Positions 5,127-63,586 of a DNA stretch of 64,000 nucleotides are shown here, piece after piece. Origin of the DNA: Eubacteriales bacterium (GTDB taxonomy: Bacteria; Bacillota; Clostridia; Lachnospirales; JAITVM01); NCBI GenBank assembly GCA_031551135.1, contig JAVBOA010000006.1, positions 17,502 through 81,501 of the forward strand. Reading direction: 5' to 3'. Each line of letters starts with the position of its first letter. The stretch's first letter is position 1. Position numbers and translations under genes: made by a program. The notes below the pieces were generated by a model. That model saw nothing but the letters and a program-made list of their open reading frames with translations. It searched no databases and had not been told where the DNA came from.

Positions 5127-5157
5127 ACCCTCTATAAAGCTGTTTAAATTATCAAAA

Positions 5158-5171
5158 TGAAAATAGTATTA
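5158..5171. repeat. Solo terminal repeat (TGAAAATAGTATTA) of the family-1 palindromic element, overlapping the polC stop codon
   Basis: 14-nt identity to the right terminal inverted repeat of the full copies at 23268, 28880 and 49312. No partner arm nearby. Confidence 0.4.
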
Positions 5172-13026: not shown

Positions 13027-13155
13027 AGTAATTCCTCCTAACCCATTTTTCGTTATTTCCAATTTGATATTTTTTCTGTTTTATAGATTGGAAATAGTAC
13101 AAGTATTATATATTTGTCGACATTATTTTGGGCTAAGAATAGGAAAAAACAAAAT

Positions 13156-16102: not shown

Positions 16103-16200
16103 TGCTTTTAGCTCCTTATAAAAATATATTAAAGCTTTTTCAATATACTTTAGAATGGCGAGTTACGCCATTCTAAAGCGGTTTTTTAATATTTTAATAT

Positions 16201-20830: not shown

Positions 20831-20866
20831 TAATACTATTTTCATTATAATGGAAATAGTATAAAT
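20831..20866. repeat. Terminal-repeat-only mini-hairpin of the family-1 element
   Basis: ATACTATTTTCATT / AATGGAAATAGTAT, 14-nt arms with almost no loop. About 100 nt upstream of the carboxypeptidase start. Confidence 0.55.
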
Positions 20867-23187: not shown

Positions 23188-23267
23188 AAACTTACACTCC
23201 CTAGCAATTAAATGTTTACGCCGGAATTTATCAAAATGTACTTTTTAAACAATAAAAACAATTACTT

Positions 23268-23383
23268 ATACTATTTTCATTTAGATAAGTAGAAAAAAAT
23301 TTTTCACAGCGGAGCGTTTCGCGCAATGCTTCAAGCGCGAAATGAAATATTTTTTTCTATCCTTAATATTGAAAATAGTATTA
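23268..23383. repeat. Family-1 nested-palindrome element, full copy 1
   Basis: ATACTATTTTCATTTAGATAAGTAGAAAAAAATTTTTCACAGCGGAGCGTTTCGCGCAATGCTTCAAGCGCGAAATGAAATATTTTTTTCTATCCTTAATATTGAAAATAGTAT. 13-nt perfect terminal inverted repeats plus an inner TTTCGCGC/GCGCGAAA hairpin. Confidence 0.9.
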
Positions 23384-24057: not shown

Positions 24058-24104
24058 TAGTGAGCCTCCAATCGCAAAGAGAGTTTTTAGAATAATCAAA
24101 ATAT

Positions 24105-24153
24105 TATACTATTTTTATTATAAAGGATAGAAAAAAATGAAAATAGTATTAAT
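24105..24153. repeat. Internally deleted family-1 element
   Basis: TATACTATTTTTATTATAAAGGATAGAAAAAAATGAAAATAGTATTAAT keeps both terminal repeats and the GGATAGAAAAAAA arm but lacks the GC-rich core. Confidence 0.6.
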
Positions 24154-27080: not shown

Positions 27081-27188
27081 TAATAATATAACCTCCTTAT
27101 ATTGATAAAAAAGAGTATTCTATTTTTGGCTATGGTTATAAATGAGAATACTAAACAATTATATCAAAATTTGATTAATAAATAAAGC

Positions 27189-27302
27189 AATACTATTTCC
27201 ATTTTTATATATATAAAAAGTTATTTCACAGCGGGACGTTTCGCGCAAGCTAAAGTGCATAATGAAATATTTTTTTCTATCCTCTGGAATGGAAATAGTA
27301 TA
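27189..27302. repeat. Family-1 element, full but divergent copy 2
   Basis: AATACTATTTCCA...TTTCACAGCGGGACGTTTCGCGCAAGC...AATGAAATATTTTTTTCTATCC...TGGAAATAGTAT. Same architecture. The left half of the inner hairpin is degraded. Confidence 0.8.
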
Positions 27303-27473
27303 AAATATCCTCATATCGCCGTATCATAATATTTTAAATCATTATAATGTTAAAATAAGTACAGATTATGTAGTAGCTTTATTTATTCCTGAAATTTGTA
27401 ATTAATTAATATATATATCGAAAATAATGCACGTTTGCTAAAATATTGTTTAAAAAAACAGCATTTTGTTTTT

Positions 27474-27503
27474 TTGCCGATGCAGTATTTTCTGTGTTAT
27501 AAT
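27474..27503 (+). promoter_or_regulatory. Candidate promoter for glnA
   Basis: TTGCCG - 18 nt - TATAAT with TG two bases upstream. 27 nt before the ATG. Confidence 0.45.
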
Positions 27504-27529
27504 ACGTAAAAAATCATAGGAGGTTTTTT

Positions 27530-28864
27530 ATGAATACAAAAAATTTAACTGCTGATGATATAAGGCAAATTGTAAAGGAAGAAAATATTCAGTTTATCAG
27601 ATTGCAGTTTGTAGATATTTTCGGGCATATGAAAAATATAGCAATACCTCATACCGAGCTTGACCGTGCTCTAAACAATCAAATGATGTTTGACGGTTCT
27701 TCTATAGAAGGTTTTGTCCGAATTGAAGAATCTGATATGTACCTGTATCCTGATTTATCTACATTTACAATTTTTCCGTGGTATAAGGAACAAAAAATCG
27801 CCAGAATGATTTGTGATATTCATAGACCGGACGGAACACCTTTCGAGGGCGATCCGCGCCATATACTCAGGCTTGCCATTGAAGAAGCAAAAAGCATGGG
27901 ATTCGATTTTTACGTCGGTCCCGAATGCGAATTTTTTCTTTTTCATACAGACGAAAAAGGCGATCCGACGACCATAACTCACGACGAAGCTTCTTATTTT
28001 GATTTAGCTCCTATTGATAATGGTGAGCTTGCACGTATCGAAATGGTTAAGACTCTTATGGACATGGGCTTTCAAATCGAAGCCGCACACCACGAAAATG
28101 CTCCGGGTCAGCATGAAATAGATTTTAAATATTCCGACGCAATTTCCGCGGCGGATAATATTGTTACATTTAAGCTTGCAGTAAAAGTTGTTGCCAAAAA
28201 ACACAATCTTTATGCAACTTTTTTGCCAAAACCTTTAAATAATCAATGCGGCTCCGGAATGCACTGCACTATGTCGCTTTTTAGAGATGGAAAAAACGCG
28301 TTTTATGACGAAAACGGAGAAAATCAACTTTCAAAAGAGGCGTTTTATTTTATCGGTGGAATTATTAAACACGCAAAAGGCATGACTGCACTTACAAATC
28401 CTCTTGTTAATTCTTATAAAAGGCTTGTGCCGGGATTTGAAGCGCCGGTATATATCGCGTGGTCTTACGCAAACCGCTCTCCGCTTATCCGGATTCCGGT
28501 TGCACGAAAAACCGGAACAAGAATTGAATTGCGCCACCCTGATCCGTCGTGTAACCCTTATCTTGCATTGGCTGTGATTTTGCGCGCAGGCCTCCGCGGA
28601 ATAAAAGAAAAAATTTCTCCGCCTTCGGCTGTTGACGAAAATATTTACAGAATGACAGATGAGCAACTTTTGCAAAACGGAATCGAAAAATTGCCGACAA
28701 ATCTTAATGAATCAATCGAGGCTTTATTGGCTGATGACTTTGTAAAGTCGGCATTGGGAAACCATGTTTTGTTAAATTATATAAAGGCGAAAAAAATCGA
28801 ATGGAGCGAATATTCAAATTATATTCACCCTTGGGAGATTTCAAGATACTTGCGGTTATACTAA
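27530..28864 (+). CDS. glnA: Glutamine synthetase, type I
   Basis: 444 aa. FDGSSIEGF, GPECEFFLF, NAPGQHEID and NRSPLIRIP motifs. Confidence 0.96.
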   Translation: MNTKNLTADDIRQIVKEENIQFIRLQFVDIFGHMKNIAIPHTELDRALNNQMMFDGSSIEGFVRIEESDMYLYPDLSTFTIFPWYKEQKIARMICDIHRPDGTPFEGDPRHILRLAIEEAKSMGFDFYVGPECEFFLFHTDEKGDPTTITHDEASYFDLAPIDNGELARIEMVKTLMDMGFQIEAAHHENAPGQHEIDFKYSDAISAADNIVTFKLAVKVVAKKHNLYATFLPKPLNNQCGSGMHCTMSLFRDGKNAFYDENGENQLSKEAFYFIGGIIKHAKGMTALTNPLVNSYKRLVPGFEAPVYIAWSYANRSPLIRIPVARKTGTRIELRHPDPSCNPYLALAVILRAGLRGIKEKISPPSAVDENIYRMTDEQLLQNGIEKLPTNLNESIEALLADDFVKSALGNHVLLNYIKAKKIEWSEYSNYIHPWEISRYLRLY

Positions 28865-28879
28865 AATAATTTAATATTT

Positions 28880-28995
28880 ATACTATTTTCAATATGAAGG
28901 ATAGAAAAAAATATTTCATTTCGCGCTAGAAACATTGCGCGAAACGCTCCGCTGTGAAAAATTTTTTTCTACTTATTAAAATGAAAATAGTATTA
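28880..28995. repeat. Family-1 element, full copy 3 (opposite orientation on the plus strand)
   Basis: ATACTATTTTCAATATGAAGGATAGAAAAAAATATTTCATTTCGCGCTAGAAACATTGCGCGAAACGCTCCGCTGTGAAAAATTTTTTTCTACTTATTAAAATGAAAATAGTATT. Starts 16 nt after the glnA stop and ends 44 nt before the next ATG. Confidence 0.9.
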
Positions 28996-29038
28996 ATAGA
29001 GAATTTCAATGTTGTTTCGTTTAAAAGGATGATTAAAA

Positions 29039-30166
29039 ATGGATTTTAAAAAAAATATAAAGAAAATTATTACATCAATACTTGCCGTGTTTATTGCAAT
29101 TTTTGCTTACTTATCTGATAAAGATGTAATACCCGGTTTTAACAATGAAGATTCTGAAAGTACCGAAACAACAAATACTGAAAACACACCAAAAACAATT
29201 ACAAATTATAAGGATGGAGTGACAATCTATTATATAGATGTAGGTCAGGCCGACTCCACTTTAATTGTATCAGAATTTGGAAATATGCTGATTGACGGCG
29301 GCGAAAATGAGACCGAGAATTCACTTGTAAAATTTATTTCCGAAAAAGGAATTAATACTCTGGATTATGTTGTTGCAACCCACGCCCACAGCGACCATAT
29401 CGGCGGATTGGATAAAGTAATTGAAGAATTTAACGTAAAAAATATTTTAATGACAAACGGAATTAATGAAACGACATCATATGAAAACTTCTTGAAAGCA
29501 ATTAAGAAGAAAAAAATTACACCGCAATTAGTTAAATCCAATGATACCTTCGAAATGGGCGATTTGCTTTTTACTGTACTTAATCCTCTTTACGACAGAT
29601 ATGAAAACTTGAATAATTACTCAATTTGCCTTAAAATGGTATACAAAGATACTTCCTTTTTATTTATGGGTGACGCCGAAAAAGAAGTTGAGAAAAATAT
29701 TTTAAGTCTTGGAATTGATGTTTTGGCGGATGTTTATAAAGCCGGACATCATGGTTCTTCCACAAGCACGACCGAAGCTTTTTTAAATAAAGCGAATCCG
29801 CTTGCGGCGATAATCAGCTGCGGCAAAAATAATGATTATGGCCACCCTCATAAAGAAACAATTGATAAATTTAACCGAAAATCAATAAAAACATACCGAA
29901 CAGATTTATTGGGCACAATTACTCTTAATTCAGACGGCGAACATATAACTATAAATGGTGAGACGATAGAAACACGACATGAACTATTGAATAAAGAATA
30001 TGTTGATGAAAACGGAAATGCCTTGATAAAGGGAAATATTAACGCAAAAGGTGAAAAAATATATCATATGCCGGGAGGCAATCACTATGAGAAAACGGTC
30101 GCGGAGGAATATTTCAAAACGGAACAAGAGGCGCTTAATGAAGGATTTAAAAAATCAGGATCTTAA
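29039..30166 (+). CDS. Membrane-anchored ComEC-like metallo-beta-lactamase-fold hydrolase
   Basis: N-terminal TM helix. MBL motif ATHAHSDHIGG, later GDAE and GHHGS. C-terminal YHMPGGNHYEKT...YFKTEQEA tail. Confidence 0.8.
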   Translation: MDFKKNIKKIITSILAVFIAIFAYLSDKDVIPGFNNEDSESTETTNTENTPKTITNYKDGVTIYYIDVGQADSTLIVSEFGNMLIDGGENETENSLVKFISEKGINTLDYVVATHAHSDHIGGLDKVIEEFNVKNILMTNGINETTSYENFLKAIKKKKITPQLVKSNDTFEMGDLLFTVLNPLYDRYENLNNYSICLKMVYKDTSFLFMGDAEKEVEKNILSLGIDVLADVYKAGHHGSSTSTTEAFLNKANPLAAIISCGKNNDYGHPHKETIDKFNRKSIKTYRTDLLGTITLNSDGEHITINGETIETRHELLNKEYVDENGNALIKGNINAKGEKIYHMPGGNHYEKTVAEEYFKTEQEALNEGFKKSGS

Positions 30167-30383
30167 AATTTTAGTAGTAGATCGAATTGTCGAAAACAAA
30201 CTGGTATGCCAAGAATTAGAGACCGAAAAAATTTTTAATTTCAATTTATCTTCCGATTCCCGAGAGTATAATGAAGGTGATGTTTTAATTTATGGCGGCG
30301 GAGCCTTGAAATTTGATCAGGAACTAACCGAAAAGCGCAAAAAAGAAATGCAGTCGTTGTTTGATGATTTATTTAAAAATTAG
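30138..30383 (+). CDS. Small protein, DUF3006-like
   Basis: ATG 30138 overlaps the upstream gene end by 29 nt. KILVVDRIVENKLVCQELETEKIFNF...GDVL resembles the DUF3006 family I recall as a frequent partner of ComEC-like MBL genes. The ORF-track start at 30051 is an out-of-frame overlap extension. Confidence 0.55.
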   Translation: MKDLKNQDLKILVVDRIVENKLVCQELETEKIFNFNLSSDSREYNEGDVLIYGGGALKFDQELTEKRKKEMQSLFDDLFKN

Positions 30384-30407
30384 ATAATAAAATTGAGGAG
30401 TGATTAA

Positions 30408-30827
30408 ATGAAATTAGCAGTTAGGTATTATTCACGCGGCGGAAACACAAAAAAACTTGCTCTGGCGGTTGCCGGCGCACTAAATGTAATGGCGCATACG
30501 ACCGGTGAAAAAATTACCGAGCCTATTGATATACTTTTTTTGGGTTCGGCACTGTATGCATGGCAGCCTGACAAAAACATCTCCGAATTTATTAAAACGC
30601 TTTCACCTGAAATAATAAAAAATGTTGTGATTTTTACTACATCCGCAAGCCCAAATTCACCTTATCCGAAAATCAAAAAATTATTGGAGGAACAAGGCCT
30701 AAATGTAAGCGAAAAGTTTTATCACTGCCCGGGAGAATTTCTGTTTGCAAATAAAAACCGCCCGACAGAAGACGATTTGAAAAAAATTGCCGAGTTTGCT
30801 AAAGATATTGTAAAAACGATGGAATGA
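30408..30827 (+). CDS. Flavodoxin-family protein
   Basis: 139 aa. N-terminal YYSRGGNTKKLA phosphate-binding-loop-like motif. GGAG RBS. Confidence 0.65.
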   Translation: MKLAVRYYSRGGNTKKLALAVAGALNVMAHTTGEKITEPIDILFLGSALYAWQPDKNISEFIKTLSPEIIKNVVIFTTSASPNSPYPKIKKLLEEQGLNVSEKFYHCPGEFLFANKNRPTEDDLKKIAEFAKDIVKTME

Positions 30828-30837
30828 GGAGAAAAAA

Positions 30838-31374
30838 ATGAATATTTATGATTTCACGGTTAAAGATAACAAAGGAAATGATGTTTCTTTAAAAGAATAT
30901 CAAGGAAAAGCATTGCTGATTGTGAATACAGCGACAAAATGCGGCTTAACTCCGCAATATGAAGAACTTGAGAATATTTATCAAAAATTTAAAGACAGAG
31001 GCTTTGAAGTTCTGGATTTTCCATGCAATCAATTTTTGAAGCAGGCACCGGGCAGCGACGAGGAAATTGAAAGCTTTTGCACTCTGAAATATAACACTAC
31101 GTTTCCTCGTTTCAGCAAAATAGATGTAAACGGCGAAAATACCCACCCTCTTTTTAAATATTTGAAATCCGAAAAGCCAAAAGAACTTTTTGACAAAAAG
31201 GCCGCTTCTTTTGAAAAGAAAGTAAGATTGTTTAATAAAATCAAATCGGATTCGGATATAAAATGGAACTTTGGAAAATTCCTCATTGATAAATCCGGAA
31301 ATGTTGTTGAACGTTATTCTCCGGCATATGTACCGGAAGATTTAATTAATGATATTGAAAATTTATTAAATTAG
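30838..31374 (+). CDS. Glutathione peroxidase (Cys type)
   Basis: LIVNTATKCGLTPQY, FPCNQF and WNFGKFL are the three GPx signature blocks. Confidence 0.92.
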   Translation: MNIYDFTVKDNKGNDVSLKEYQGKALLIVNTATKCGLTPQYEELENIYQKFKDRGFEVLDFPCNQFLKQAPGSDEEIESFCTLKYNTTFPRFSKIDVNGENTHPLFKYLKSEKPKELFDKKAASFEKKVRLFNKIKSDSDIKWNFGKFLIDKSGNVVERYSPAYVPEDLINDIENLLN

Positions 31375-31389
31375 TTTTATTGGTGATTA

Positions 31390-31418
31390 AAGGCAGAGAC
31401 AATCTCCGCCTTTTTTTA
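31390..31418 (+). terminator. Rho-independent terminator after the peroxidase gene
   Basis: AGGCAGAGA / TCTCCGCCT stem (one mismatch) followed by T7. Confidence 0.6.
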
Positions 31419-49294: not shown

Positions 49295-49311
49295 TAATTT
49301 GTCCTCCAATT

Positions 49312-49425
49312 AATACTATTTTCATTTTGATAGTAGAAAAAAATTTTTCACAGCGGAGCGTTTCGCGCAATGTTTCTAGCGCGAAGTGAAGTATTTTTTC
49401 TATTCTTTATATTGAAAATAGTATA
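49312..49425. repeat. Family-1 element, full copy 4
   Basis: AATACTATTTTCATTTTGATAGTAGAAAAAAATTTTTCACAGCGGAGCGTTTCGCGCAATGTTTCTAGCGCGAAGTGAAGTATTTTTTCTATTCTTTATATTGAAAATAGTAT. Begins 18 nt upstream of the malic-enzyme ATG, abutting its RBS. Confidence 0.9.
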
Positions 49426-49473
49426 ATAATCATACTATATCCATTTTTATTTATATAAACGATAAAGTCAAGA

Positions 49474-49518: not shown

Positions 49519-49560
49519 TAATACTATTTTCATTTTGATAAGTAGAAAAAAATATTTCTA
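49519..49560. repeat. Truncated family-1 element (one arm only)
   Basis: TAATACTATTTTCATTTTGATAAGTAGAAAAAAATATTTCTA matches the left arm and stops before the GC-rich core. It sits between a stop codon and its terminator. Confidence 0.65.
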
Positions 49561-49563
49561 TAA

Positions 49564-49719
49564 TTAATCAATTCTATTTGCTTTTTTGCTTGAATTTTTT
49601 GCTTTGCCCTGAATCTCCGGAACAGGTTCAACATCATTTTTTTCTATGTGAGTTTTATGATTGCTCTCTGTTCCATGAGGTTCTTTCGGGTCTGGTCTGC
49701 GCATTCCTGCTTTAGCCAT
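49564..49719 (-). CDS. Small basic hypothetical protein (51 aa), not in the ORF track
   Basis: GAGGTGATATT-ATG. MAKAGMRRPDPKEPHGTESNHKTHIEKNDVEPVPEIQGKAKNSSKKANRID, TAA stop, with its own terminator. Confidence 0.45.
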   Translation of the reverse strand: MAKAGMRRPDPKEPHGTESNHKTHIEKNDVEPVPEIQGKAKNSSKKANRID

Positions 49720-49764
49720 AATATCACCTCAAATATATTATGCTCAGTTTTTTTTTAAATTATG

Positions 49765-49850
49765 CTGACGACCTAAAACAAAGTTCACACCAATTCCTCC
49801 CAACTTACCTAACCGCGCGGAATGGGTGTAAAAATCTAGTCGTTCGTCAG
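49765..49850. repeat. Family-2 hairpin repeat, copy A
   Basis: CTGACGACCTAAAACAAAGTTCACACCAATTCC...GGAATGGGTGTAAAAATCTAGTCGTTCGTCAG. About 85% identical to the reverse complement of 63474..63552. Confidence 0.8.
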
Positions 49851-49854
49851 TATA

Positions 49855-51327
49855 TTATAAAATCAGCATTGCAAAAATCGAAACAGCTCCCGAAATAAGA
49901 ATGATAATTAAATCATTCAATTTTAAAAATTTATGTAAACAATAAACCGTAAATAGAATTCCGACAATTACTACTAAAGAAAGATAATTTGATATTCCCG
50001 CTGTTATAGAAATTTTTATCATTTCGGAAAGCATAGAAATCATTGTCGTTATTAGCATTCCGCAAATTACGGGCAAAATCCAAGTTTTAAGCGATATAAA
50101 AACCTTTATTTCGGAAAAAGCTTTATAAACTAATTCAACCAAAAAATATGAAATGCAGGAAAAGCCTATTCCTATAGTAAATCCTAATATCGCCAAAATA
50201 TACGCCGCTCCGATTGAATTTATTTTTCCGGCACCAAAAGAATATCCTATACAGGATAAAAGTTTGACCAAAATCGGCCCGGGCAGAGCATTTGTAATCG
50301 GCAGCATTTGGCTATAGAAAACATCAGAAGAAACAAAACCGCCGTCCACAAATAATCCGTGCGCTACGGTTAAATATGCTTCGCCACCGCCAAAAGAAGT
50401 AACTGTAGAGATTATGCCGAATTTCAAATAATCTATTATTTCACTGCCGAACAAAATGTAAGCGATTGCGGCAAAAATCAATATAGCGGCGAGAAAATAT
50501 GAACAAACTATGAGAGTGCCTTTAATATCAATTTTATTTGTACTTCTTTTTTCACTCTTTGCGTCTAAATATGTAAATACAACACAAAGCAAAAGCATTG
50601 TATACATAATAATATTTTTCATCAGCGGAAAACTAAAACCTGTTCCCTTTCCCGAAAGAAGCACAAAAAAGACCGAGATTATTACACAAAGCGAAATTCG
50701 TATATATTTTAAAATCGAGTTTTTGTATTTTGAAAAATCCCCGACTGTGAATATTATAAAAAACACTAACAGTAAAAGGTCGATTGTTGATATATCCAAA
50801 AATGCTTTTCCCAATGAATCCTGCGGAATATTTGCAAATATTTCATAAATTAACGCACGTATTTCTTTTCCGCATGTCAAAAAAGCTGAAGCCAGCATAA
50901 TTATAATTTTATAATTTCTTTCGGTTTTGGAAGTATTCAGAACTTTAAGAATATAATGTACAAGCAAAAAAATAATAAACGCAGAAATCCCGATTGAAGC
51001 ATATTCAATTAAAAGCAAGCCTTGTTTATCCATCGTCGCTATCAAAGATAAAAGAATTACCGAAATAAAAACTCCCGGAAATGCCAAGGTATAGGCGGAT
51101 AAGAGCGAAAACAAAGCTCCTGAATGTTCTTTTCCGATAGCGGCGCTTAATTTTACCGGTAAAGCACCCGGTGTAATATTTGCAATTATTGTTTCCTCTG
51201 TGTATTTTTCCGACGAAACAAAGTTTTTATCTATAACAGCCTCCTTTTCAATAACCGGAATCAGCGCACTGCCACCGCCAAAACCAATTAAACCGATTTT
51301 TAAAAATGTTTTAATTAATTCAAACAT
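49855..51327 (-). CDS. CHR-family (chromate-transporter-like) oxyanion transporter, two-domain form
   Basis: 490 aa polytopic protein. N-terminal FLKIGLIGFGGGSALIPVIEKE and a second FGGGEAYLTV ... LPGPI half, as in duplicated CHR domains. Confidence 0.75.
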   Translation of the reverse strand: MFELIKTFLKIGLIGFGGGSALIPVIEKEAVIDKNFVSSEKYTEETIIANITPGALPVKLSAAIGKEHSGALFSLLSAYTLAFPGVFISVILLSLIATMDKQGLLLIEYASIGISAFIIFLLVHYILKVLNTSKTERNYKIIIMLASAFLTCGKEIRALIYEIFANIPQDSLGKAFLDISTIDLLLLVFFIIFTVGDFSKYKNSILKYIRISLCVIISVFFVLLSGKGTGFSFPLMKNIIMYTMLLLCVVFTYLDAKSEKRSTNKIDIKGTLIVCSYFLAAILIFAAIAYILFGSEIIDYLKFGIISTVTSFGGGEAYLTVAHGLFVDGGFVSSDVFYSQMLPITNALPGPILVKLLSCIGYSFGAGKINSIGAAYILAILGFTIGIGFSCISYFLVELVYKAFSEIKVFISLKTWILPVICGMLITTMISMLSEMIKISITAGISNYLSLVVIVGILFTVYCLHKFLKLNDLIIILISGAVSIFAMLIL

Positions 51328-51361: not shown

Positions 51362-52045
51362 TCAAATTTCGATAATAAAAATCTCGTTATTCAGCAAATC
51401 AATCCGCATAATCGATTTATCCAGAATATTGCCGCGATTCAGCAGTAATTTAATTGCTTCCGAAGTTTCAAACGCAGAAACCGCCTGCACCGTAAAAGGC
51501 AGATTGCCCTGCGAACTGTCAATATAATCATCTTCCAGATTTCCGTATATTTTTTCGAAAAGATTCGAATCCGGCATAAAAACAGCAATTTGCCCGTAAA
51601 AACCCCGGACTGCGCCATGCACTACCGGAATCGAAAGTTTTCTGCATATCTGGACAATAATTCTTCTGGTTTTAATATTATCGAGTGCGTCAATCACTAA
51701 ATCATTTCCGGAAATTATTTTTTCGGCATTATTTTCGTCTATTCTTTCATAAACAGGATTTACAATTACGTCAGAATTTACCTCTTTAATTCTCTCGGCA
51801 GCGGCATAAGCTTTCGGCAAACCGATTTTTTTTTCTGTGCAAAATAATTGCCGGTTTAAATTTGATTCTTCGAAAACGTCTCCGTCTGCAATTGTAAGAT
51901 TCAACACGCCTATTCTTGCAAGTGTTTCGGCAATATATCCGCCCAATCCGCCTGCGCCGATTATGCAGATTTTTTTTCCATGAAGAATCCTCATATCTTC
52001 CGAAGACAGAGAATTATAATTTCTGGCATATCTGTTTTCAAACAT
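51362..52045 (-). CDS. ThiF/MoeB/HesA-family adenylyltransferase (E1-like), short form
   Basis: ICIIGAGGLGGYIAETLARIGV ... DGDVFEESNLNRQ. No rhodanese domain and no CxxC pairs visible. Confidence 0.8.
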   Translation of the reverse strand: MFENRYARNYNSLSSEDMRILHGKKICIIGAGGLGGYIAETLARIGVLNLTIADGDVFEESNLNRQLFCTEKKIGLPKAYAAAERIKEVNSDVIVNPVYERIDENNAEKIISGNDLVIDALDNIKTRRIIVQICRKLSIPVVHGAVRGFYGQIAVFMPDSNLFEKIYGNLEDDYIDSSQGNLPFTVQAVSAFETSEAIKLLLNRGNILDKSIMRIDLLNNEIFIIEI

Positions 52046-52059
52046 ATAATCAACTGCCT

Positions 52060-53940
52060 TTATATTTCAATAATTTCGCCTATTCTATCGTAAGTATAAC
52101 CCGAAAATTCATTTAATTGAGTTTTGAATTCATCGCTTTTTATTATAGAAATAAAATCTTGAACCCTAGTATCTTCCAAATATTCCTGCGCTATTAAAAA
52201 ATCATACTCTTCATTAAAAAGCGGAACAAAATCCAAATCCATAGCTTTTGCAGCGGCGTATATACCAAGACCGACATCAGATTGACCCGATTTTACCGCT
52301 ATCGCAACTGCCAAATGTGTGTTGAATTCTTTTTCGTATCCATAAATTTCGCTAATTTCGATATTTTCTTTTTTCAGGCTATAGTCAAATAAAATTCTCG
52401 TGCCCGCACCTCTCTGCCGATTTGCATATTTAATATTATTTTTTAAATCGGCGAAATTTTTAATGCCGAACGGATTTCCTTTTTGAACAATAAAGCCTTG
52501 AACCCTGCCAACACCCTTAATCAGCAGCATTTTTTTATCTTTTATAAATTTTCTTGCATAAGATAAATTATATTCGCCGCTCTCCTCGTCCAAAAGATGA
52601 ATCGGAGCTAAATGACATTCGCCTCTTTTGATAGCGGTGATTCCTCCCATACTGCCGACATGAGCCGAAGACAGAGGCATTTTATCCGAAATCACATCAA
52701 TTATTAAATCGTGGCTTCCGGTAACAACCAATGTTTTTTTTATTTCATGAACCGGCTTCAATAATTCTATTTCTACAGTTTTTCCGGCTTCTATTCCTTC
52801 GAGATTACGAGGGATTATCATTTTACCATCGGCTTTTATAAGGCTCATCACCGCCGCCGCGCCTCTTTCCAAAGGAGTAGCAACAAATTTATTGTCTACA
52901 TATCCTAACGAGACGCGTATTATTTCTTCGTTTTTAATCGACGAAACAATCGAACGTGTAACGCTAGCTTCGATAAAATCAGCTGATTCGTCGTTTTGCT
53001 TATCTAAAAATCTCATCACAATAGGTTTGACAAATTTATCGAACATCAAATAAGCCGAAACGGGATAACCGGGAACACCAATTACGGGCTTTTGCATTAT
53101 TTCAGCCAAAATCGTCGGTTTTCCGGGTTTTATGGCAACTCCGTGAGTATGCAGAGTACCAAGCTCTTTTATGCATTTCAATGTAAAATCTTTAGTTCCC
53201 GCTGAAGTTCCGGCGTTTATAACTACAATATCATTTTCAGAAATAGCTTGCAATATTGTTTTCTTCAAATCGTCAATATTATCTCTGACAATCGGATATC
53301 TTTTTCCTTCTGCACCATATTGATCAGCCAAAGCCATAAAAACATGAGAATTTGATTCCATAAGCTTATTTTCGCCGATATCGTTCGGGTTCTCTACAAG
53401 CTCAGCGCCTGTTGGAATAATTCCGATCTTCGGTTTTTTATAAACTTCTATCTCTTTGTAGCCGCCGGCTACCAGCGCACCCATATCCAGCGGACGGATT
53501 TTATGTTTCGACGGCAGAATCATTTCTCCTGCAACAATACTTTCGCCAACAACTCTGATATGCTGCCAAGGCGCGGCGGCTTCGATTATTTCAATCGTAT
53601 TTTCATCAATAAGAATACAATCTTCAATCATAATTACAGAATCAAATTGAGCTTTAATTTGCCCGCCTGTATTAATATATTCAAAATTTTCATGCTGTAT
53701 TAATCTGATTTTGTTTAATTCATTCGCTCCGAATGTATCTTTTGAATGAACAGCAATTCCGTCCATGGCTGCGGCATTATACATCGGGTCACAGATTTTT
53801 GCCAAAACAGGTTTATAAGTATATCTGCCAAGCGCCGAATCTATATCAACAGTTTCTTTTTCAGCGCGTATTCCAAACAAAGAAATATATCTGTCAAACG
53901 CATCTGCAGGGTCGTTATTCTCTATATAAGTATTTCTCAT
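52060..53940 (-). CDS. moeA: MoeA-type molybdopterin molybdenum/tungsten transferase fused to a C-terminal periplasmic-binding-protein-like domain
   Basis: 626 aa. MoeA core (AAMDGIAV ... PGKPT ... GVPGYPVS), then about 200 aa of PBP-like sequence (LVVTGSHD ... NRQRGAGTR). Confidence 0.8.
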   Translation of the reverse strand: MRNTYIENNDPADAFDRYISLFGIRAEKETVDIDSALGRYTYKPVLAKICDPMYNAAAMDGIAVHSKDTFGANELNKIRLIQHENFEYINTGGQIKAQFDSVIMIEDCILIDENTIEIIEAAAPWQHIRVVGESIVAGEMILPSKHKIRPLDMGALVAGGYKEIEVYKKPKIGIIPTGAELVENPNDIGENKLMESNSHVFMALADQYGAEGKRYPIVRDNIDDLKKTILQAISENDIVVINAGTSAGTKDFTLKCIKELGTLHTHGVAIKPGKPTILAEIMQKPVIGVPGYPVSAYLMFDKFVKPIVMRFLDKQNDESADFIEASVTRSIVSSIKNEEIIRVSLGYVDNKFVATPLERGAAAVMSLIKADGKMIIPRNLEGIEAGKTVEIELLKPVHEIKKTLVVTGSHDLIIDVISDKMPLSSAHVGSMGGITAIKRGECHLAPIHLLDEESGEYNLSYARKFIKDKKMLLIKGVGRVQGFIVQKGNPFGIKNFADLKNNIKYANRQRGAGTRILFDYSLKKENIEISEIYGYEKEFNTHLAVAIAVKSGQSDVGLGIYAAAKAMDLDFVPLFNEEYDFLIAQEYLEDTRVQDFISIIKSDEFKTQLNEFSGYTYDRIGEIIEI

Positions 53941-53965
53941 ATTCGCACCTTTACTATTTTTTTAG

Positions 53966-55189
53966 TCAGAACAAATCAACAAAAACTTTTTCGCCTGCCA
54001 TATAACCTTCGATATTTTCGGGTATTGAAAATATCCCGTCCGATTTTTGAATTTGACTTATAAGTCCGGATTTCCCATAGACCGGTTTTGCCAAAATTTT
54101 ATCTTTCTCATAAATCAATTGAACGGATTGAAAGGTCATTTTTCCGGGAGAAGAATGTACATTTTCGGTTAATTGCGCCAAAACTGGTTTAGGATTTCTT
54201 GTACCATAAATTAAATCAAGATAATATTCTACAATAATTTTAAAAATAATCAAGCAAGACACGGTTTGCCCCGGCAGTCCAAAAACAGGCTTTTCTCCGA
54301 CTTTTCCGATTATGCTCGGCTTTCCCGGCTTTATCGAGATTCCATGAACCAAAACTTCTCCGTTTTCTATGGCGTTTATTGCGCTGTAAGTATAATCTTT
54401 TTCTCCGACAGAGCTTCCACCGGACATAATAACAAAATCGTTATCCGCAAGCGATTCCTCTATAGCATTTTTTATATCCAAAAAATTATCTTTGATTATT
54501 CTTCGAGAAGTAATTTCGATTCCTCTTTTTTGCAAAGCGGCTGAGATTACATATGAATTTGTATCTCTTATTTTGCCTTTTGCTATTTTTTCATCAATAT
54601 CAATAATTTCATCACCGGTCGACAAAATACTGCATTTCGGCATTTTTATTAAATCGAGTTCGAATATTCCGGCCGCCGACAAAATTCCAATATCCAATTC
54701 ATTTATTATTTTTCCTTTTTCCAATAATAAATGATTAATTTTACAATCATCGCCCTCACGTATTATATTTGAATTCGGCGCAATCGATTTATTCACGGCT
54801 ATAGTTTTTTCATCAATCTGCTCGACATATTCTATCATAACTATTCCATCAGAATTTGTCGGAATAATTCCTCCTGTAGGGACTTTTACACATTCGCCGC
54901 TTTTTATAGAGATTTCTTTGCCTTCGCCCATAAAAATCTCATCAATTACATTTAGAAAACAGGGCACGGTTTCAGAAGCCCCGAAAGTATCGCCGGCGAG
55001 CACGGCGTATCCGTCTACGGTTGAACGGTCGAATAAAGGCGTATTTTCAAAAGAATATATTTTTTTTGAAGAAACTCTCCCAATACATTTAGAAAGCTGA
55101 ACTTTTTCGGATTCCAAATTCTCTCTATAAAATTCATCTTTAATTTTTTGCTTTACTTCATCAATACTCATTAAATTTAAAAATCCCAC
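53966..55189 (-). CDS. moeA: Molybdopterin molybdenumtransferase MoeA
   Basis: 407 aa. STVDGYAV, SGGSSVGEKDY, KPGKPS and GLPGQTVS motifs. Non-ATG start. Confidence 0.88.
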   Translation of the reverse strand: MGFLNLMSIDEVKQKIKDEFYRENLESEKVQLSKCIGRVSSKKIYSFENTPLFDRSTVDGYAVLAGDTFGASETVPCFLNVIDEIFMGEGKEISIKSGECVKVPTGGIIPTNSDGIVMIEYVEQIDEKTIAVNKSIAPNSNIIREGDDCKINHLLLEKGKIINELDIGILSAAGIFELDLIKMPKCSILSTGDEIIDIDEKIAKGKIRDTNSYVISAALQKRGIEITSRRIIKDNFLDIKNAIEESLADNDFVIMSGGSSVGEKDYTYSAINAIENGEVLVHGISIKPGKPSIIGKVGEKPVFGLPGQTVSCLIIFKIIVEYYLDLIYGTRNPKPVLAQLTENVHSSPGKMTFQSVQLIYEKDKILAKPVYGKSGLISQIQKSDGIFSIPENIEGYMAGEKVFVDLF

Positions 55190-55198
55190 AATACACCT

Positions 55199-55807
55199 CT
55201 AATTAAGCGTTAATCGATTTTTGCAAATTCTGGATATTTGAGCTTTATTATGCGAAACAATAATTATTGTTGTTTTATTTTTCTTATTATATTCCAAAAT
55301 ACAATCTTCCAATTGAGTTATTGTATTTGCGTCAATCGCCGAAAAAGGCTCGTCCAGCAAAAGCAGTTTCGGTGCGGCGACAAACGCCCGGCCCAATGCA
55401 ACCTTTTGCGCTTCGCCCCCCGAAAGCTTTCTTGCATTCTGTTTAACGAGTTTTTCCAGACCCAAAAGCCTAATAATTTCTTCGGTATTTGATTTTATCA
55501 AATCCTTATTGATTTTTCTCAATTTTTGCGGATATTCAATATTTTTATAAACAGACCTATCCAAAAGCATCGGAGTTTGGAAAACCATAGTTACAAAGCT
55601 TGGATTAATCCCGGAACCACCGTATGTAATTTTACCTTTGAAATCAGTATCCAAGCCGGCAATTATTTTAAGCAATGTCGTTTTTCCCGTGCCGTTATCG
55701 CCTTCCAACGACGAAATTTCTCCGCTCGGAAAAACCATTTCCTTTATATTCAATGAAAATTTTTTGGACAAAGTTTTTGATAAATCGATAATTTTAAGTT
55801 CCATCAT
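55199..55807 (-). CDS. tupC: ABC transporter ATP-binding protein (tungstate TupC-like)
   Basis: Walker A GDNGTGKTT, signature LSGGEAQKV, Walker B LLLLDEP. Overlaps tupB by 14 nt. Confidence 0.75.
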   Translation of the reverse strand: MMELKIIDLSKTLSKKFSLNIKEMVFPSGEISSLEGDNGTGKTTLLKIIAGLDTDFKGKITYGGSGINPSFVTMVFQTPMLLDRSVYKNIEYPQKLRKINKDLIKSNTEEIIRLLGLEKLVKQNARKLSGGEAQKVALGRAFVAAPKLLLLDEPFSAIDANTITQLEDCILEYNKKNKTTIIIVSHNKAQISRICKNRLTLN

Positions 55808-56498
55808 TTTCCTTGCTTTCTTTAAACGAATACGAAATCCAGTTAATCCCGAACGAAACAGAAATCAATATTATTCCCAATGCGATTGCCATAGGATAAT
55901 CGCCCATCGAGTTTAACATCGAAATCGTCGTGGTCATAACCCTTGTCTCGCCTTCAATATTTCCGCCAACCATCATAACAGCCCCAACTTCTGAAATCGC
56001 TCTCGAAAAAGCTGTTATTATGTAAATAAATAAAGTCGGTCTTAATTCAGATATAATCAAAAGAGTTGTTTGCCATTTATTGGCTCCCAAAGTCTTCGCA
56101 AGATTTTTTATTACACGTCCGTTGGTTTTGGATAAATCATAAGTCATAGCCGAAATGAGCGGCAAAACTAAAAAAAATTGCGCAATAATCATCGCTTTGT
56201 TTGTATATAAAAGCGATAAAAAACCCAAAGGCCCGCGGCGCGATAAAAATAACATTATAATCAAACCAACAATAACCGACGGCGTGCTCATAAAAGTATT
56301 TAAAAGGCGAGATAGAAATCTCTCGCCTTTTAAAGAAACACTGCCTAAATAAATAAAAATCGGAACAGCAACCAAAGAAGCCAATATGGTTGCTGAAATT
56401 GATACAAAAAGCGATCTTGCGACAATCTGAATGAAGTCCGGGCTAAAACTAAAAATAATTCTAAAAGCCTCGAAAAAACCTTCAATAATATATTTCAT
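55794..56498 (-). CDS. tupB: ABC transporter permease (tungstate TupB-like)
   Basis: 234 aa with about 5-6 TM helices and an EAA-like loop AFSRAISEVGAVMMVGGN. Confidence 0.75.
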   Translation of the reverse strand: MKYIIEGFFEAFRIIFSFSPDFIQIVARSLFVSISATILASLVAVPIFIYLGSVSLKGERFLSRLLNTFMSTPSVIVGLIIMLFLSRRGPLGFLSLLYTNKAMIIAQFFLVLPLISAMTYDLSKTNGRVIKNLAKTLGANKWQTTLLIISELRPTLFIYIITAFSRAISEVGAVMMVGGNIEGETRVMTTTISMLNSMGDYPMAIALGIILISVSFGINWISYSFKESKENDGT

Positions 56499-56527
56499 TT
56501 AATTAATCCCAATCTTTTCATATCTTA

Positions 56528-57721
56528 TTATTTAGCGTTTGGTATAAATAAAGCTTTTCCGTATTTATCAACGCCGAATTTTGAAATTAAATCTTGAGTT
56601 TTTTCAGAAATTATCCAATTTGCAAAATCTACAGCACCTTTAACGTTAATAGAATCATTTTTTGTAGGGTTTACTACAAGAACGCCGTATTGATTAAATA
56701 ATTTGCTGTCGCCTTCGCAAAGAACCACAAGGTCTAATTTATCTTTCATGCTCAAATAAGTTGCTCTGTCTGTGAGTGTATAAGCTTGCATTTCGTTAGC
56801 CATGGTAAGAACAGCGCCCATACCTTGACCGGCCGATACATAATATTTAGAGTTTGGAGTTATCGAAACTTCTTTCCATAATTTCTTTTCCAATTTATCT
56901 GTTCCCGAATCGTCTCCTCTGGAAACAAATTTAGATTGAGCTTTGTCAATCGCTTTAAGCGAGCCTAAAATATCTTTTGCAGTTGATTTAACTCCGGCCG
57001 GGTCTTTTGCAGGACCAACAAGAATAAAATCGTTATACATAACATCGGAGCGGTACATTCCATCGCCGGATGCCATAAACGCTGTTTCATCAGCTTTCGC
57101 ATGTACAAGCAAAACATCAGCTTCGCCGTCTTTACCCATTTGAATAGCTTTTCCTGTTCCCACAGATACAACTTTTACATTATAGCCGGTTTCTTTTTCA
57201 AAAACAGGCAATAAATAATCTAATAAGCCACTGTCTTGAGTGCTGGTTGTTGTGGAAAGAATTATATTTTTATTTGAATTTGTTTTTGCGATATCACCGG
57301 AAACGGTTACCGTTCTGCTCGACGCATTCCATTCAACTTTAGCGTCAAAAGCTTCGGATACAAATCTAAGCGGTACAAAAGTTTGGTTATTTATGATGAC
57401 CGGAGCGGTATCAAAAGTTTTAGATTGTTTATTGATTTTTACGTTTTTATCGCCGATAGTAGTAATTACATAAGTTTTTGGAGATACGAAAGTAATTGTT
57501 TTAGTTTGGTCATTGTAACATGTGTCAATTCCCAAAGCTGTGGCTAAATCTCTAACAGGAACTTGAGTTCTGCTCATACTGTCGATAAACGGTTTGCCCA
57601 AAGAAAATTCTACATTTTTCCCGTTTACCTTAACCGAAATATCCGCTGCCATAGCCGGAACTGTAAAGAAAACCAAAGATAATAACATTGCGATAAAAAT
57701 ACTAAAAATACCTTTTTTCAT
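56528..57721 (-). CDS. tupA: Tungstate-binding protein TupA fused to an N-terminal copper-amine-oxidase-N-like (stalk) domain
   Basis: ATG 57721 after GGAGG. Signal peptide ...VPAMA/AD without a lipobox Cys. VKVNGKNVEF...QVPVRDLATALG...FVPLRFVSEAFDAKVEW is stalk-like. TTTSTQDSGLLDYLLPVFEKETGYNVKVVSVGTGKA...LLVHA...NDFILVGP is the TupA-type binding fold. Confidence 0.78.
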   Translation of the reverse strand: MKKGIFSIFIAMLLSLVFFTVPAMAADISVKVNGKNVEFSLGKPFIDSMSRTQVPVRDLATALGIDTCYNDQTKTITFVSPKTYVITTIGDKNVKINKQSKTFDTAPVIINNQTFVPLRFVSEAFDAKVEWNASSRTVTVSGDIAKTNSNKNIILSTTTSTQDSGLLDYLLPVFEKETGYNVKVVSVGTGKAIQMGKDGEADVLLVHAKADETAFMASGDGMYRSDVMYNDFILVGPAKDPAGVKSTAKDILGSLKAIDKAQSKFVSRGDDSGTDKLEKKLWKEVSITPNSKYYVSAGQGMGAVLTMANEMQAYTLTDRATYLSMKDKLDLVVLCEGDSKLFNQYGVLVVNPTKNDSINVKGAVDFANWIISEKTQDLISKFGVDKYGKALFIPNAK

Positions 57722-57764
57722 AAAATAACCTCCAGTGTTTTTGATAAGCGTATAACGCCCACTT

Positions 57765-57880
57765 ATACTATTTTCATTTAGATAGGTAGAAAAAAATTTT
57801 TCACAGCGGAGCGTTTCGCGCAATGTTTCTAGCGCGAAATGAAATATTTTTTTCTATCCTTAATATTGAAAATGGTATTA
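57765..57880. repeat. Family-1 element, full copy 5
   Basis: ATACTATTTTCATTTAGATAGGTAGAAAAAAATTTTTCACAGCGGAGCGTTTCGCGCAATGTTTCTAGCGCGAAATGAAATATTTTTTTCTATCCTTAATATTGAAAATGGTATTA. Lies 44 nt upstream of the tupA ATG. Confidence 0.9.
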
Positions 57881-57899
57881 TTTATTAATTCCCAAATAA

Positions 57900-57928
57900 A
57901 GTTTAACAAATGTATATAATCGTGTCAA
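57900..57928 (-). promoter_or_regulatory. Sigma-A type promoter for tupABC
   Basis: Minus strand reads TTGACA - 17 nt - TAAACT. It is on the far side of the element relative to tupA. Confidence 0.55.
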
Positions 57929-57986
57929 CAATTCTAACAAAAATTTAATCGATTTTTTGGTTTCTATGTAGAATTTAAACATCAAG

Positions 57987-58015
57987 TTGACAACTTAAAT
58001 ACAATAATATATACT
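57987..58015 (+). promoter_or_regulatory. Sigma-A type promoter for the riboswitch-aor operon
   Basis: TTGACA (57987..57992) - 17 nt - TATACT (58010..58015), ending about 8 nt before the riboswitch P1 strand. Confidence 0.6.
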
Positions 58016-58021
58016 AATAAT

Positions 58022-58116
58022 ATACTCCGAGTTTGGCGAAAGCCAAACCAATGGGCTGCGCAGCAGCCTGCCGTGTTTGCAAAGGAGCTTCTTTTTAAGG
58101 AGGCTTCTTTTTTGTT
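58022..58116 (+). promoter_or_regulatory. Molybdenum/tungsten cofactor (Moco/Tuco) riboswitch candidate with expression platform
   Basis: ACUCCGAG - UUUGGC GAAA GCCAAA - CCAAU - GGGCUGC..GCAGCCU - GCCGUGUUUGC - AAAGGAG. 5' CUCC can pair with 3' GGAG (P1), there are two capped stems, and the conserved CCGAG and AAAGGAG elements are as I recall for the Moco RNA motif. Sits upstream of a tungsten enzyme gene. Confidence 0.7.
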
Positions 58117-58378
58117 TGCTTATAACAATGATTTTATAATAAAATCTGCAGTACCAATAGCACAAATACTCAAGTATTTTGATGAAATCGGAGTACAAAA
58201 AAATTCCGGCGGATATTATACATTCAATAGTTTGGAAATAACTATCAAAGAAGATTACAATCCTGTGTTTTCGAATTTATTAATTCCCCAGAATACAATT
58301 ATTATCGAAGGCACACGTGAAGAATGTATCTTATTTGTAGATAAATTCAGATTAAAATTTTTATCTGCCGGTGGCTGA
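58112..58378 (+). CDS. Small hypothetical protein (88 aa) ending in Gly-Gly
   Basis: TTG 58112 preceded by AAGGAGG-N8. The ORF-track start at 58073 lies inside the riboswitch. Ends ...FRLKFLSAGG-stop. No family recognised. Confidence 0.5.
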   Translation: MFAYNNDFIIKSAVPIAQILKYFDEIGVQKNSGGYYTFNSLEITIKEDYNPVFSNLLIPQNTIIIEGTREECILFVDKFRLKFLSAGG

Positions 58379-58458
58379 TTTGCATTTTTTAATCTGAAAG
58401 CATCATTTATTGCGGCTATACAAATTCAATATATAGTAATACATAAGGAGTGAATATT

Positions 58459-60255
58459 ATGTCAATATCTTACAATGAAAAAATTTTAAGAGTAAATTTA
58501 ACGGAGAAAAATTATACAATCGAAGGACTCGATTTAAATCTTGCTAAAAAATTCATCGGCGGGCGCGGCTTGGGAACAAAAATCTATATGGATGAAGTTT
58601 CACCGGAAATCGACCCATTTTCACCGGAAAATAAAGTTGTTATAATTACAGGTCCACTGTCCGGAGCTTCTGTTCCGACCGGCGGAAGATATATGGTTGT
58701 TACAAAATCTCCTTTAACAGGAATGATTGCTTCCTCAAATTCTGGCGGACATTGGGGCGGAAAGCTCAAATATGCCGGATATGACGCTATAATTTTAGAA
58801 GGAAAAGCTGAAACCCCTGTTTATATGAATATTGTCGACGACAAAATCGAAATTTTGGATGCCGGTGATTTATGGGGCAAAACTACCGAAGAAACCGAAG
58901 AAATCTTGAAATCCAGACATGAGGGCGCATGCATTATGAATATAGGGCCTGCCGGAGAAACTCTCTCATTGCTTGCGTCGGTTATGAACGACGGAGACAG
59001 AGCCGCAGGACGTTCGGGAGTCGGCGCAGTTGTCGGCTCTAAAAACCTAAAAGCCATCTGCGTTACGGCTACAAGGGGAAATATTCCTGTATACGATTCG
59101 GAAAAATTAAAAGAAGTAACTAAATCATGTTTGGCAAAAATTAAGGAAAACGGAGTAACCGGCTCGGGTTTGCCGACCTTCGGTACTGCTGTATTAGTAA
59201 ATATTATAAATCAAGTTGGTTCTTTTCCGGTAAATAACTGGCAAGGCGCAAGCGACGACGATGCCGACAAAATATCCGGCGAAACCCTAAAGGAAACTAA
59301 ACTTGTGAAAAACGGCTTCTGCCATAGATGTCCAATCGGCTGTGCAAGAATAGTTGATATCGACGGCAAAATCTGCGGCGGTCCCGAATATGAAACATTA
59401 TGGGCATTCGGTTCGGATTGCGGAATACATGATTTGGATGCAATAAACAAAGCTAATTTAATGTGTAATGAAATGGGCAACGACACAATATCTGTAGCAA
59501 CGACAATCGCCGCCGCTATGGAACTTTATCAAAAAGGCTTTATAAAAGAAGAAGATTGCGAAGGCGTACCTTTGAATTTCGGAAATTCCGAAGCCATTGT
59601 TAAATGGACAGAAAGAATGGGCAGAGGCGAAACCGCTCTCGGCAAATTAATGGCTCAAGGCTCTTACCGCTTATGTGAACATTACGGTCATCCGGAATTT
59701 TCAATGAGCGTTAAAAAACAGGAAATACCTGCCTACGACGCACGCGGCATTCAGGGAATCGGATTGAATTACGCAACCAGCAACCGCGGCGGATGCCATG
59801 TTAGAGGATATATGATTTCACCGGAAATTTTAGGCTTGCCGGAAGCTTTGGACAGAACCACAACCGAAAATAAAGCTACTTGGACGAAAATTTTCCAAGA
59901 CCTTACAGCGGTAATCGATTCTACAGGCATGTGTTTGTTTACTTCATTCGCACTCGGAGCAGACTCCTATGCCGATTTGCTTAATGCCGCTATCGGTACT
60001 GATTTTACAGTTGAAAGCATTTTAGAAGCCGGAGAAAGAATTTATAATCTCGAAAGACTCTATAATAAATTAGCCGGAATGAAACCGGAAGACGATACTT
60101 TGCCGAAACGCATTCTCGAAGAGCCGATTCCGGAAGGACCGTCGAAAGGCATGGTAAGTAAATTAGATATTATGCTGCCGGAATATTATAATGTGCGCGG
60201 TTGGGAAAACGGATTCCCTACCGAGAATACATTAAAACGCTTGGAGTTAATATAA
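58459..60255 (+). CDS. aor: Aldehyde:ferredoxin oxidoreductase (tungstopterin enzyme)
   Basis: ATG 58459 after AAGGAG-N8. AOR N-domain (KILRVNLTEK ... GGRGLG) and the cluster/pterin region CHRCPIGCA ... EYETLWAFG ... GGCHVRGY. Confidence 0.93.
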   Translation: MSISYNEKILRVNLTEKNYTIEGLDLNLAKKFIGGRGLGTKIYMDEVSPEIDPFSPENKVVIITGPLSGASVPTGGRYMVVTKSPLTGMIASSNSGGHWGGKLKYAGYDAIILEGKAETPVYMNIVDDKIEILDAGDLWGKTTEETEEILKSRHEGACIMNIGPAGETLSLLASVMNDGDRAAGRSGVGAVVGSKNLKAICVTATRGNIPVYDSEKLKEVTKSCLAKIKENGVTGSGLPTFGTAVLVNIINQVGSFPVNNWQGASDDDADKISGETLKETKLVKNGFCHRCPIGCARIVDIDGKICGGPEYETLWAFGSDCGIHDLDAINKANLMCNEMGNDTISVATTIAAAMELYQKGFIKEEDCEGVPLNFGNSEAIVKWTERMGRGETALGKLMAQGSYRLCEHYGHPEFSMSVKKQEIPAYDARGIQGIGLNYATSNRGGCHVRGYMISPEILGLPEALDRTTTENKATWTKIFQDLTAVIDSTGMCLFTSFALGADSYADLLNAAIGTDFTVESILEAGERIYNLERLYNKLAGMKPEDDTLPKRILEEPIPEGPSKGMVSKLDIMLPEYYNVRGWENGFPTENTLKRLELI

Positions 60256-63455: not shown

Positions 63456-63473
63456 CGAAAAATTATAACTACA

Positions 63474-63552
63474 CTGACGAACGATTAGATTTTCACACCC
63501 ATTCCGTGCGGTTAGGTAGAGAATGGGTGTGAACTTTGTTTTCGTTCGTCAG
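63474..63552. repeat. Family-2 hairpin repeat, copy B
   Basis: CTGACGAACGA-TTAGATTTT-CACACCCATTC-CGTGCGGTTAGGTA-GAGAATGGGTGTG-AACTTTGTTT-TCGTTCGTCAG. An 11-bp outer and an 11-bp inner stem are separated by an internal loop. Confidence 0.8.
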
Positions 63553-63586
63553 TATTTTAGAGTTCTGCGCTTTTAATCGCATAGAA

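Follow-up and report, generated by a model that had tools for sequence, protein, structure and literature searches.

What kind of element is the nested palindrome that recurs in five full-length copies within this 64,000-nt stretch of DNA (hereafter the window) from an uncultured Clostridia-class organism of about 35% G+C? The first-pass annotation had placed these copies at 23268, 27189, 28880, 49312 and 57765 and had suggested that the family was unusual. All five were borne out by alignment, by a core-string search and by profile-HMM and covariance-model scans. The five full copies scored 103–140 bits in a covariance-model scan of the window with the filters off, and the profile-HMM scan also recovered the family. 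Moreover, a 27-nt core string occurred four times without a mismatch, against zero occurrences expected in the window. Four copies had been described as nearly identical and the one at 27189 as older; the pairwise identities agree with this, being 92–97% among the four young copies and 75–78% between these and the 27189 copy. The evidence set out below indicates that the family is very probably a MITE, a small gene-less non-autonomous transposon that inserts at TWA. This MITE family is new, and it is of an ordinary, well-known kind.

The element ends in TACTATTTTCA...TGAAAATAGTA, an 11-nt inverted repeat that delimits a unit of about 110–112 bp. As the base outside ATAC...GTAT was equal on both sides in every copy, the boundaries were shifted one base inward. 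The inverted repeat was perfect in three full copies, and the remaining copies carried one mismatch or a compensated change. The terminal inverted repeats noticed in the first pass are thus real, but the length of 13 nt given for them is not, since the outer bases belong to the duplicated target and the proper repeat is 11 nt long.

We found that direct 3-bp repeats, either TTA...TTA or TAA...TAA, surround seven of the eight complete copies, counting both short forms and a metagenome relative (L042, described below). TTA flanks four of them. The first spans 57763..57880 on the plus strand, with TTA at 57763-57765 and 57878-57880 around an element of 112 nt at 57766-57877 (139.6 bits); the second spans 23266..23383 on the plus strand (element 23269-23380); the third lies inverted on the minus strand at 28878..28995 (element 28881-28992 in plus-strand coordinates); and the fourth is a minus-strand short form at 24104..24151, whose 42-nt element (24107-24148) consists of the left inverted repeat, one arm and the right inverted repeat. 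TAA flanks the plus-strand copy at 49311..49426 (element 49314-49423, 110 nt, with two 1-nt deletions), the short form at 20831..20864 (element 20834-20861, 28 nt of inverted repeats only, with no strand assigned) and the metagenome relative. The one exception is the old, diverged plus-strand copy at 27188..27303 (element 27191-27300), which represents a distinct subtype and is flanked by CAA and TAA.

When the dinucleotide frequencies of the window or of its spacers were taken as the null, the chance of such a flanking repeat was 0.02–0.04 per copy, which gives a probability of 1e-11 to 2e-9 for at least seven in a small sample of eight complete copies. An extension of the palindrome would read TTA...TAA; the flanks are direct repeats, and they therefore represent duplicated target. 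The earlier statement that no obvious target-site duplication was present is accordingly wrong. After normalising to core orientation, the duplication read TTA in two copies and TAA in the rest, without any tie to core orientation, indicating that the element enters an asymmetric target either way round. Other duplication lengths (1 nt; 2-nt TA or AT; ANT) were rejected, as direct repeats came from the TWA 3-mer alone.

The duplication also bears on a possible REP/REPIN-type origin, in which a RAYT (Y1 HUH) transposase would mobilise the repeat as single-stranded DNA. REP/REPIN repeats are built of 20–40 nt palindromic units and have an associated RAYT gene, and neither they nor IS200/IS605-type elements are known to make target duplications. 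Such a repeat would likewise be an intergenic long hairpin of two inverted arms; the left arm carries a GTAG, and the one-strand wobble pattern described below fits a single-stranded DNA intermediate. However, the 3-bp direct duplication is present, and the single arms do not form palindromic REP units on their own. The window showed no Y1 transposase domain, and the element has about 29% G+C, whereas REPs are G+C-rich and without MITE signatures (PMC3184786). We therefore regard this origin as very unlikely.

The copies are dispersed, have unrelated flanks, occur in both orientations, and are intergenic in every case. The coordinates of the five full copies had been given without orientation; the coordinates hold, and what was missed is that the 28880 copy is inverted, arms and core together. 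Copies 57766 and 49314 both precede a ribosome-binding site: the former that of a tungstate/phosphate-type binding-protein gene (ATG near 57725, minus strand), at a distance of about 29 nt, and the latter the GGAGG of the malic-enzyme gene, at 3 nt. Copy 23269 is flanked by two minus-strand reading frames, a 172-aa ORF (stop at 23581) and an ftsQ-like gene (start at 23187); copy 28881 starts 16 nt past the glnA stop and ends 46 nt before a metallo-beta-lactamase (MBL)-fold gene. The 27191 copy is located within the divergent PBP1/glnA spacer.

Two features of these surroundings were observed alongside. A plus-strand gene block at 27500-31400, comprising glnA, the MBL-fold gene, a flavodoxin-like gene and glutathione peroxidase, has a locally positive GC skew; the window is otherwise minus-strand with negative skew, and the block holds the sole inverted full copy (28881). 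A tungsten/molybdopterin cluster at 51362-60255 includes a ThiF-like gene, ABC transporter genes and two genes for MoeA, one of which is fused to a PBP-like domain. It also encodes a binding protein whose N-terminal domain is of the copper-amine-oxidase type, and a divergent aldehyde:ferredoxin oxidoreductase (AFOR). Copy 57766 occupies the divergent control region of this cluster, in which no Moco riboswitch was found at Rfam thresholds.

With five full copies, two short forms and at least four fragments, the 64-kb window holds about 11 insertion remnants. A left half copy (inverted repeat, spacer and A-run) lies on the plus strand at 49519..49559, with TAA in front of the copy proper (49522-49559); the stop codon of a 51-aa ORF directly adjoins it. 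The 27189 subtype is also represented by a left-arm fragment at 49432..49459 on the plus strand, which is 93% identical to 27190-27217, and the 49.3-49.6 kb spacer thereby contains three insertions. Two further plus-strand fragments are weak calls: a lone right end (…TCAAAATGAAAATAGTA) within 5137..5171 (end at about 5137-5168; profile HMM E 0.096), followed by a TTA that serves as the minus-strand stop codon of polC, and a lone degenerate right arm with its inverted repeat (TTTTTTCTGTTTTATAGATTGGAAATAGTA) at 13070..13099 (profile HMM E 0.65). The internal deletion of the 24107-24148 short form has AAAT microhomology at its junction. Besides short forms whose duplications are intact, the decay products of the family comprise half copies and lone ends. 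The first-pass census was right about the five full copies and about the high density, the repeat being both real and dense, and it missed the two short forms and the end fragments.

The 51-aa ORF (MAKAGMRRPDPKEPHGTESNHKTHIEKNDVEPVPEIQGKAKNSSKKANRID) is unlisted, runs from 49571 to 49726 on the minus strand, and has a good GAGG ribosome-binding site and no Pfam match. It lies between the truncated MITE copy and a member of a second hairpin repeat family, one copy of which is just upstream of this ORF. The second family is about 90 nt long and was observed at 49759-49858 (minus) and 63468-63557 (plus), the two being about 90% identical with a 7-nt loop indel. Its outer stem is CTGACGAACGA/TCGTTCGTCAG and its inner stem CACACCCATTC/GAATGGGTGTG, and its ends (ATACTGACG...CGTCAGTAT) have ATACT...AGTAT in common with the MITE. 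Neither a TWA duplication nor an Rfam match was visible for this second family.

Six-frame reading of the MITE supported the earlier view that no copy encodes a protein, as the longest open frame extends over about 32 codons and is unconserved among the copies. A small-peptide reading was rejected because a 1-nt deletion in copy 49312 disrupts its 21-aa frame. When the six-frame translation was used as a protein query, no match to spurious gene calls over other copies was obtained. Similarly, no transposase had been seen in the first pass, and Pfam detected no significant transposase domain among about 50 window ORFs scanned; the sole transposase-family line was a sub-cutoff IS110 match (20.8 bits) inside a 1439-aa activase. 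The scanned ORFs are housekeeping genes, including polC, ispG, ftsZ/ftsQ, PBPs, glnA, an ilv/leu operon, Moco/tungstate genes and AFOR, among others. The whole window gave zero Rfam matches at the gathering threshold, and a search around one copy at E<=10 brought up nothing but sub-threshold matches to unrelated families such as snoRNAs. BLASTN against plasmid and phage collections returned no match to the element, and a literature search for its sequence strings returned nothing relevant. The element, which the first pass did not recognise as any named repeat or Rfam family, thus matches nothing in Rfam, these collections or the literature searched.

These properties match the defining signatures of bacterial MITEs (PMC3184786): the element is shorter than 200 bp, has no transposase gene, and has terminal inverted repeats, a direct target-site duplication and dispersed copies in both orientations. 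Like RUP of Streptococcus pneumoniae, Correia/NEMIS of Neisseria, ERIC, Nezha and Chunjie (PMC3184786), it is about 100–150 bp long with a non-coding core, carries terminal inverted repeats and target-site duplications, and occurs in many intergenic copies, some of them in operons. A long stable stem-loop has been described in transcripts of RUP, Correia and ERIC, as is predicted for the present element. In contrast, the searches run detected no sequence similarity between the element and any of these five, and its hairpin differs from theirs in being three-tiered with an off-centre GC mini-hairpin. Duplications of RUP and Correia are of the TA dinucleotide. That of Chunjie is 9 bp (PMC3184786), compared with the 3-bp TWA found here. 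SPRITE, the pneumococcal Rho-independent-terminator-like element, and REP/BIME repeats are also among the nearest described systems; however, no copy of the present element passes the terminator scan, and REPs are G+C-rich.

Given that no significant transposase domain was found among the roughly 50 window ORFs, the element would be mobilised in trans, and the 3-bp TWA/TNA duplication points to an IS5-type (IS1031-group) or PIF/Harbinger-type DDE transposase as the partner. Members of the IS1031 subgroup of IS5, for example ISLrh, insert at TNA and have an exclusive 3-bp direct repeat (PMC12016507), a pattern to which the TTA and TAA duplications conform. They differ from the element in that it has no linked transposase gene, and TACTATTTTCA is unlike GAACCTGTCTAGTATCT of ISLrh, the one IS1031-group repeat compared. 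PIF/Harbinger transposons and Tourist-type MITEs (PMC4482050) likewise share with the element a 5'-TWA-3' trinucleotide duplication, AT-rich targets and short hairpin-forming non-autonomous derivatives; PIF/Harbinger is eukaryotic and related to bacterial IS5 at the transposase level only, and a relationship in sequence would not be expected. Going by the duplication alone, the partner transposase is most likely of the IS1031-subgroup IS5 or the PIF/Harbinger type. No autonomous element bounded by these inverted repeats turned up in the 64-kb window.

Each full copy folds, as RNA or DNA, into a three-tier nested hairpin, consisting of a 12-bp outer stem, internal loops of 6–7 nt per side, an A/T arm stem of about 19 bp, a 10-nt bulge on the 5' side (CAGCGGAGCG) and a core of an 8–10-bp GC hairpin with a 10-nt loop. 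The folding energies are -33 to -38 kcal/mol (z -5.7 to -7.1), and the hairpin is strong on both strands. Moreover, 95.9% of the structure cells are paired, compared with 42–58% when the partners were slid. The nested palindrome with paired arms and a GC core holding its own hairpin, as described in the first pass, is thus well supported. In the 27191 copy, the core hairpin is destroyed and the inverted repeat carries a compensatory change (TTTCCA/TGGAAA). The search for compensatory changes that the first pass had proposed was uninformative, the five copies being near-identical: one pair is compensated, and the covariation score was not above that of shuffles (175 of 500).

The strength of the fold on both strands speaks for a rival reading in which the element is an exapted functional RNA module. 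Its core-sense strand would be expressed as a small RNA with structure, or would serve as a terminator or stabiliser whose action depends on orientation, with transposition a mere means of spread. The compensatory pair in the inverted repeat of the old copy agrees with such a role, as does the metagenome relative, which retains the architecture despite different arm sequence. Moreover, all six one-sided stem transitions are A>G or C>T on the core-sense strand (p ~0.016, post hoc), and all six keep G.U/G.T pairing on that strand only, leaving C.A on the other, a one-strand pattern that is not predicted by a purely selfish DNA element. Palindromic MITEs, however, fold in this way by construction, the covariation and Rfam results give the module no support, and the core hairpin of the old copy is lost. 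On balance, an exapted RNA module seems unlikely.

The strand patterns around transcription point the same way as the wobble pattern. The core is antisense to transcription in all three copies that lie between co-directional genes, and also in the copy upstream of the transporter operon; this orientation bias comes from three to four copies (p ~0.125-0.25). On the core-sense strand, the 10-bp GC hairpin is followed by a T7 run that starts 5 nt after the stem, compared with about 20 nt in the antisense direction, and the left end has a -10-like TATACT, by which a promoter-like match is completed in two cases. The core-sense strand of a co-opted MITE might therefore work either as an antisense RNA of about 75-110 nt, starting at TATACT and stopping at the core hairpin and U7, or as an orientation-dependent terminator; this would explain both the wobble-compatible substitutions on that strand only and the antisense copies inside operons, and we consider such co-option improbable. 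Promoter-like matches at the elements were no commoner than in shuffles in one region and unsystematic in the other, and the terminator scan listed no copy as an intrinsic terminator, owing to the 10-nt loop and a T-run that is not adjacent to the stem. The terminator, promoter, small-peptide, REPIN/RAYT and IS200/IS605 readings were rejected as the main explanation. Elsewhere in the window, a palindrome at 16126-16200 with 35-nt arms and a 5-nt loop (…CTTTAGAATGGCG/CGCCATTCTAAAG…) has a T-run behind it and looks like an ordinary terminator, possibly a bidirectional one; the genes on either side encode a pseudouridine synthase and a D-Ala-D-Ala carboxypeptidase.

We further looked at the distribution of the MITE in other sequences. 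Exact-protein look-ups led to the same strain alone (99.9–100% identical), present in two public Logan runs, SRR23967709 and SRR23967707 (L036-L039), and several of its short-read contig ends fall inside element copies, at 23297, 28926 and 24122, as expected of a collapsed multi-copy repeat in short-read assembly. The nearest GlnA sequences are 75% identical (L050 and L052). About 35 kb around these two relatives contained no element copy, and the syntenic glnA-MBL spacer of one relative is without the element, the spacer being too diverged to align. Scans of JGI metagenome and viral contigs with the core pattern gave zero matches each, and a scan of a genome collection with a short, 18-base core pattern gave 35 loci, all of them chance matches in high-GC genomes.

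A metagenome scan for the inverted repeat, a gap and the inverted repeat returned 10 loci, among which only L042, on JGI contig Ga0123355_10531536, is homologous beyond the repeat (50.8 bits, E ~3e-9 against the covariance model). It has the inverted repeat of the family, a TAA duplication, the CCTTAAT spacer and the TTTTTCA.AGCG.AGCG motif. Although the sequences of arms and core are different, they pair into the same three-tier hairpin. This relative indicates that the family, or the recognition sequence of its transposase, is not confined to one genome. A 65-nt element at 365-431 of L045 (OJRI01000041.1, a 100-kb contig; locus 54% G+C) is flanked by TAA...TAA and has the same ends as the MITE, extended to 14 nt (TACTATTTTCAGAT...ATCTGAAAATAGTA); it is possibly an unrelated MITE moved by a similar transposase, or a chance occurrence. 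The remaining loci are unrelated hairpins or iterated motifs.

The iterated motifs are relevant to the notion that the palindromes are conserved operator sites for a DNA-binding protein and not mobile DNA. The ATACTATTTTCA palindrome does occur in unrelated metagenome contigs and is at times iterated there (L044 and L046), and the 20834 short form overlaps a good promoter-like site. An operator, however, has no need of a conserved 110-nt interior, direct 3-bp duplications and truncated copies would be unexpected, the genes next to the copies have unrelated functions (cell division, glnA, malic enzyme and tungstate uptake), and the syntenic spacer of the relative is without the element. It is thus highly improbable that the family represents operator sites. 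In L044, the motif ATACTATTTT(C/G)A forms closely spaced direct and inverted iterations at 1290-1580, together with other repeated palindromes, and looks iteron- or operator-like; in L046 (17% G+C), it forms a tandem array that repeats about every 236 bp over the whole contig. Beyond the 12-mer, neither contig is related to the MITE.

Taken together, the duplication of TWA and the placement in both orientations, which the first pass had itself named as signs of an ordinary non-autonomous transposon, indicate that the family is one, and the unusualness suggested for the family in the first pass is not supported. The element inserts in AT-rich spacers at TWA, in either orientation, duplicating 3 bp. 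A DDE transposase encoded elsewhere in the genome would bind the inverted repeats and make a 3-bp staggered cut. The four near-identical copies indicate a burst in the recent past, and the 27189 subtype together with the fragments an older wave; the short forms may have arisen from slippage or deletion across the long palindrome. The nested hairpin would then be a by-product of the palindromic build of the MITE, requiring no host function, and read-through operon transcripts would carry a stable stem-loop beside ribosome-binding sites and stop codons.

This MITE family opens no new biological question, and its value lies first in annotation, as a new family with a consensus, boundaries and a TWA target in a poorly sampled Clostridia-class lineage (nearest GlnA 75%). 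The element copies also account for the breaks that short-read assemblies of this organism show at these positions. The density of about 11 remnants in 64 kb suggests that the burst was large and genome-wide, in which case the family would be of use as a strain-typing marker. Finally, given that copies lie 3–30 nt from the ribosome-binding sites or stops of the malic-enzyme gene, glnA, the tungstate-uptake genes and the ftsQ region, they may alter the expression of these genes.
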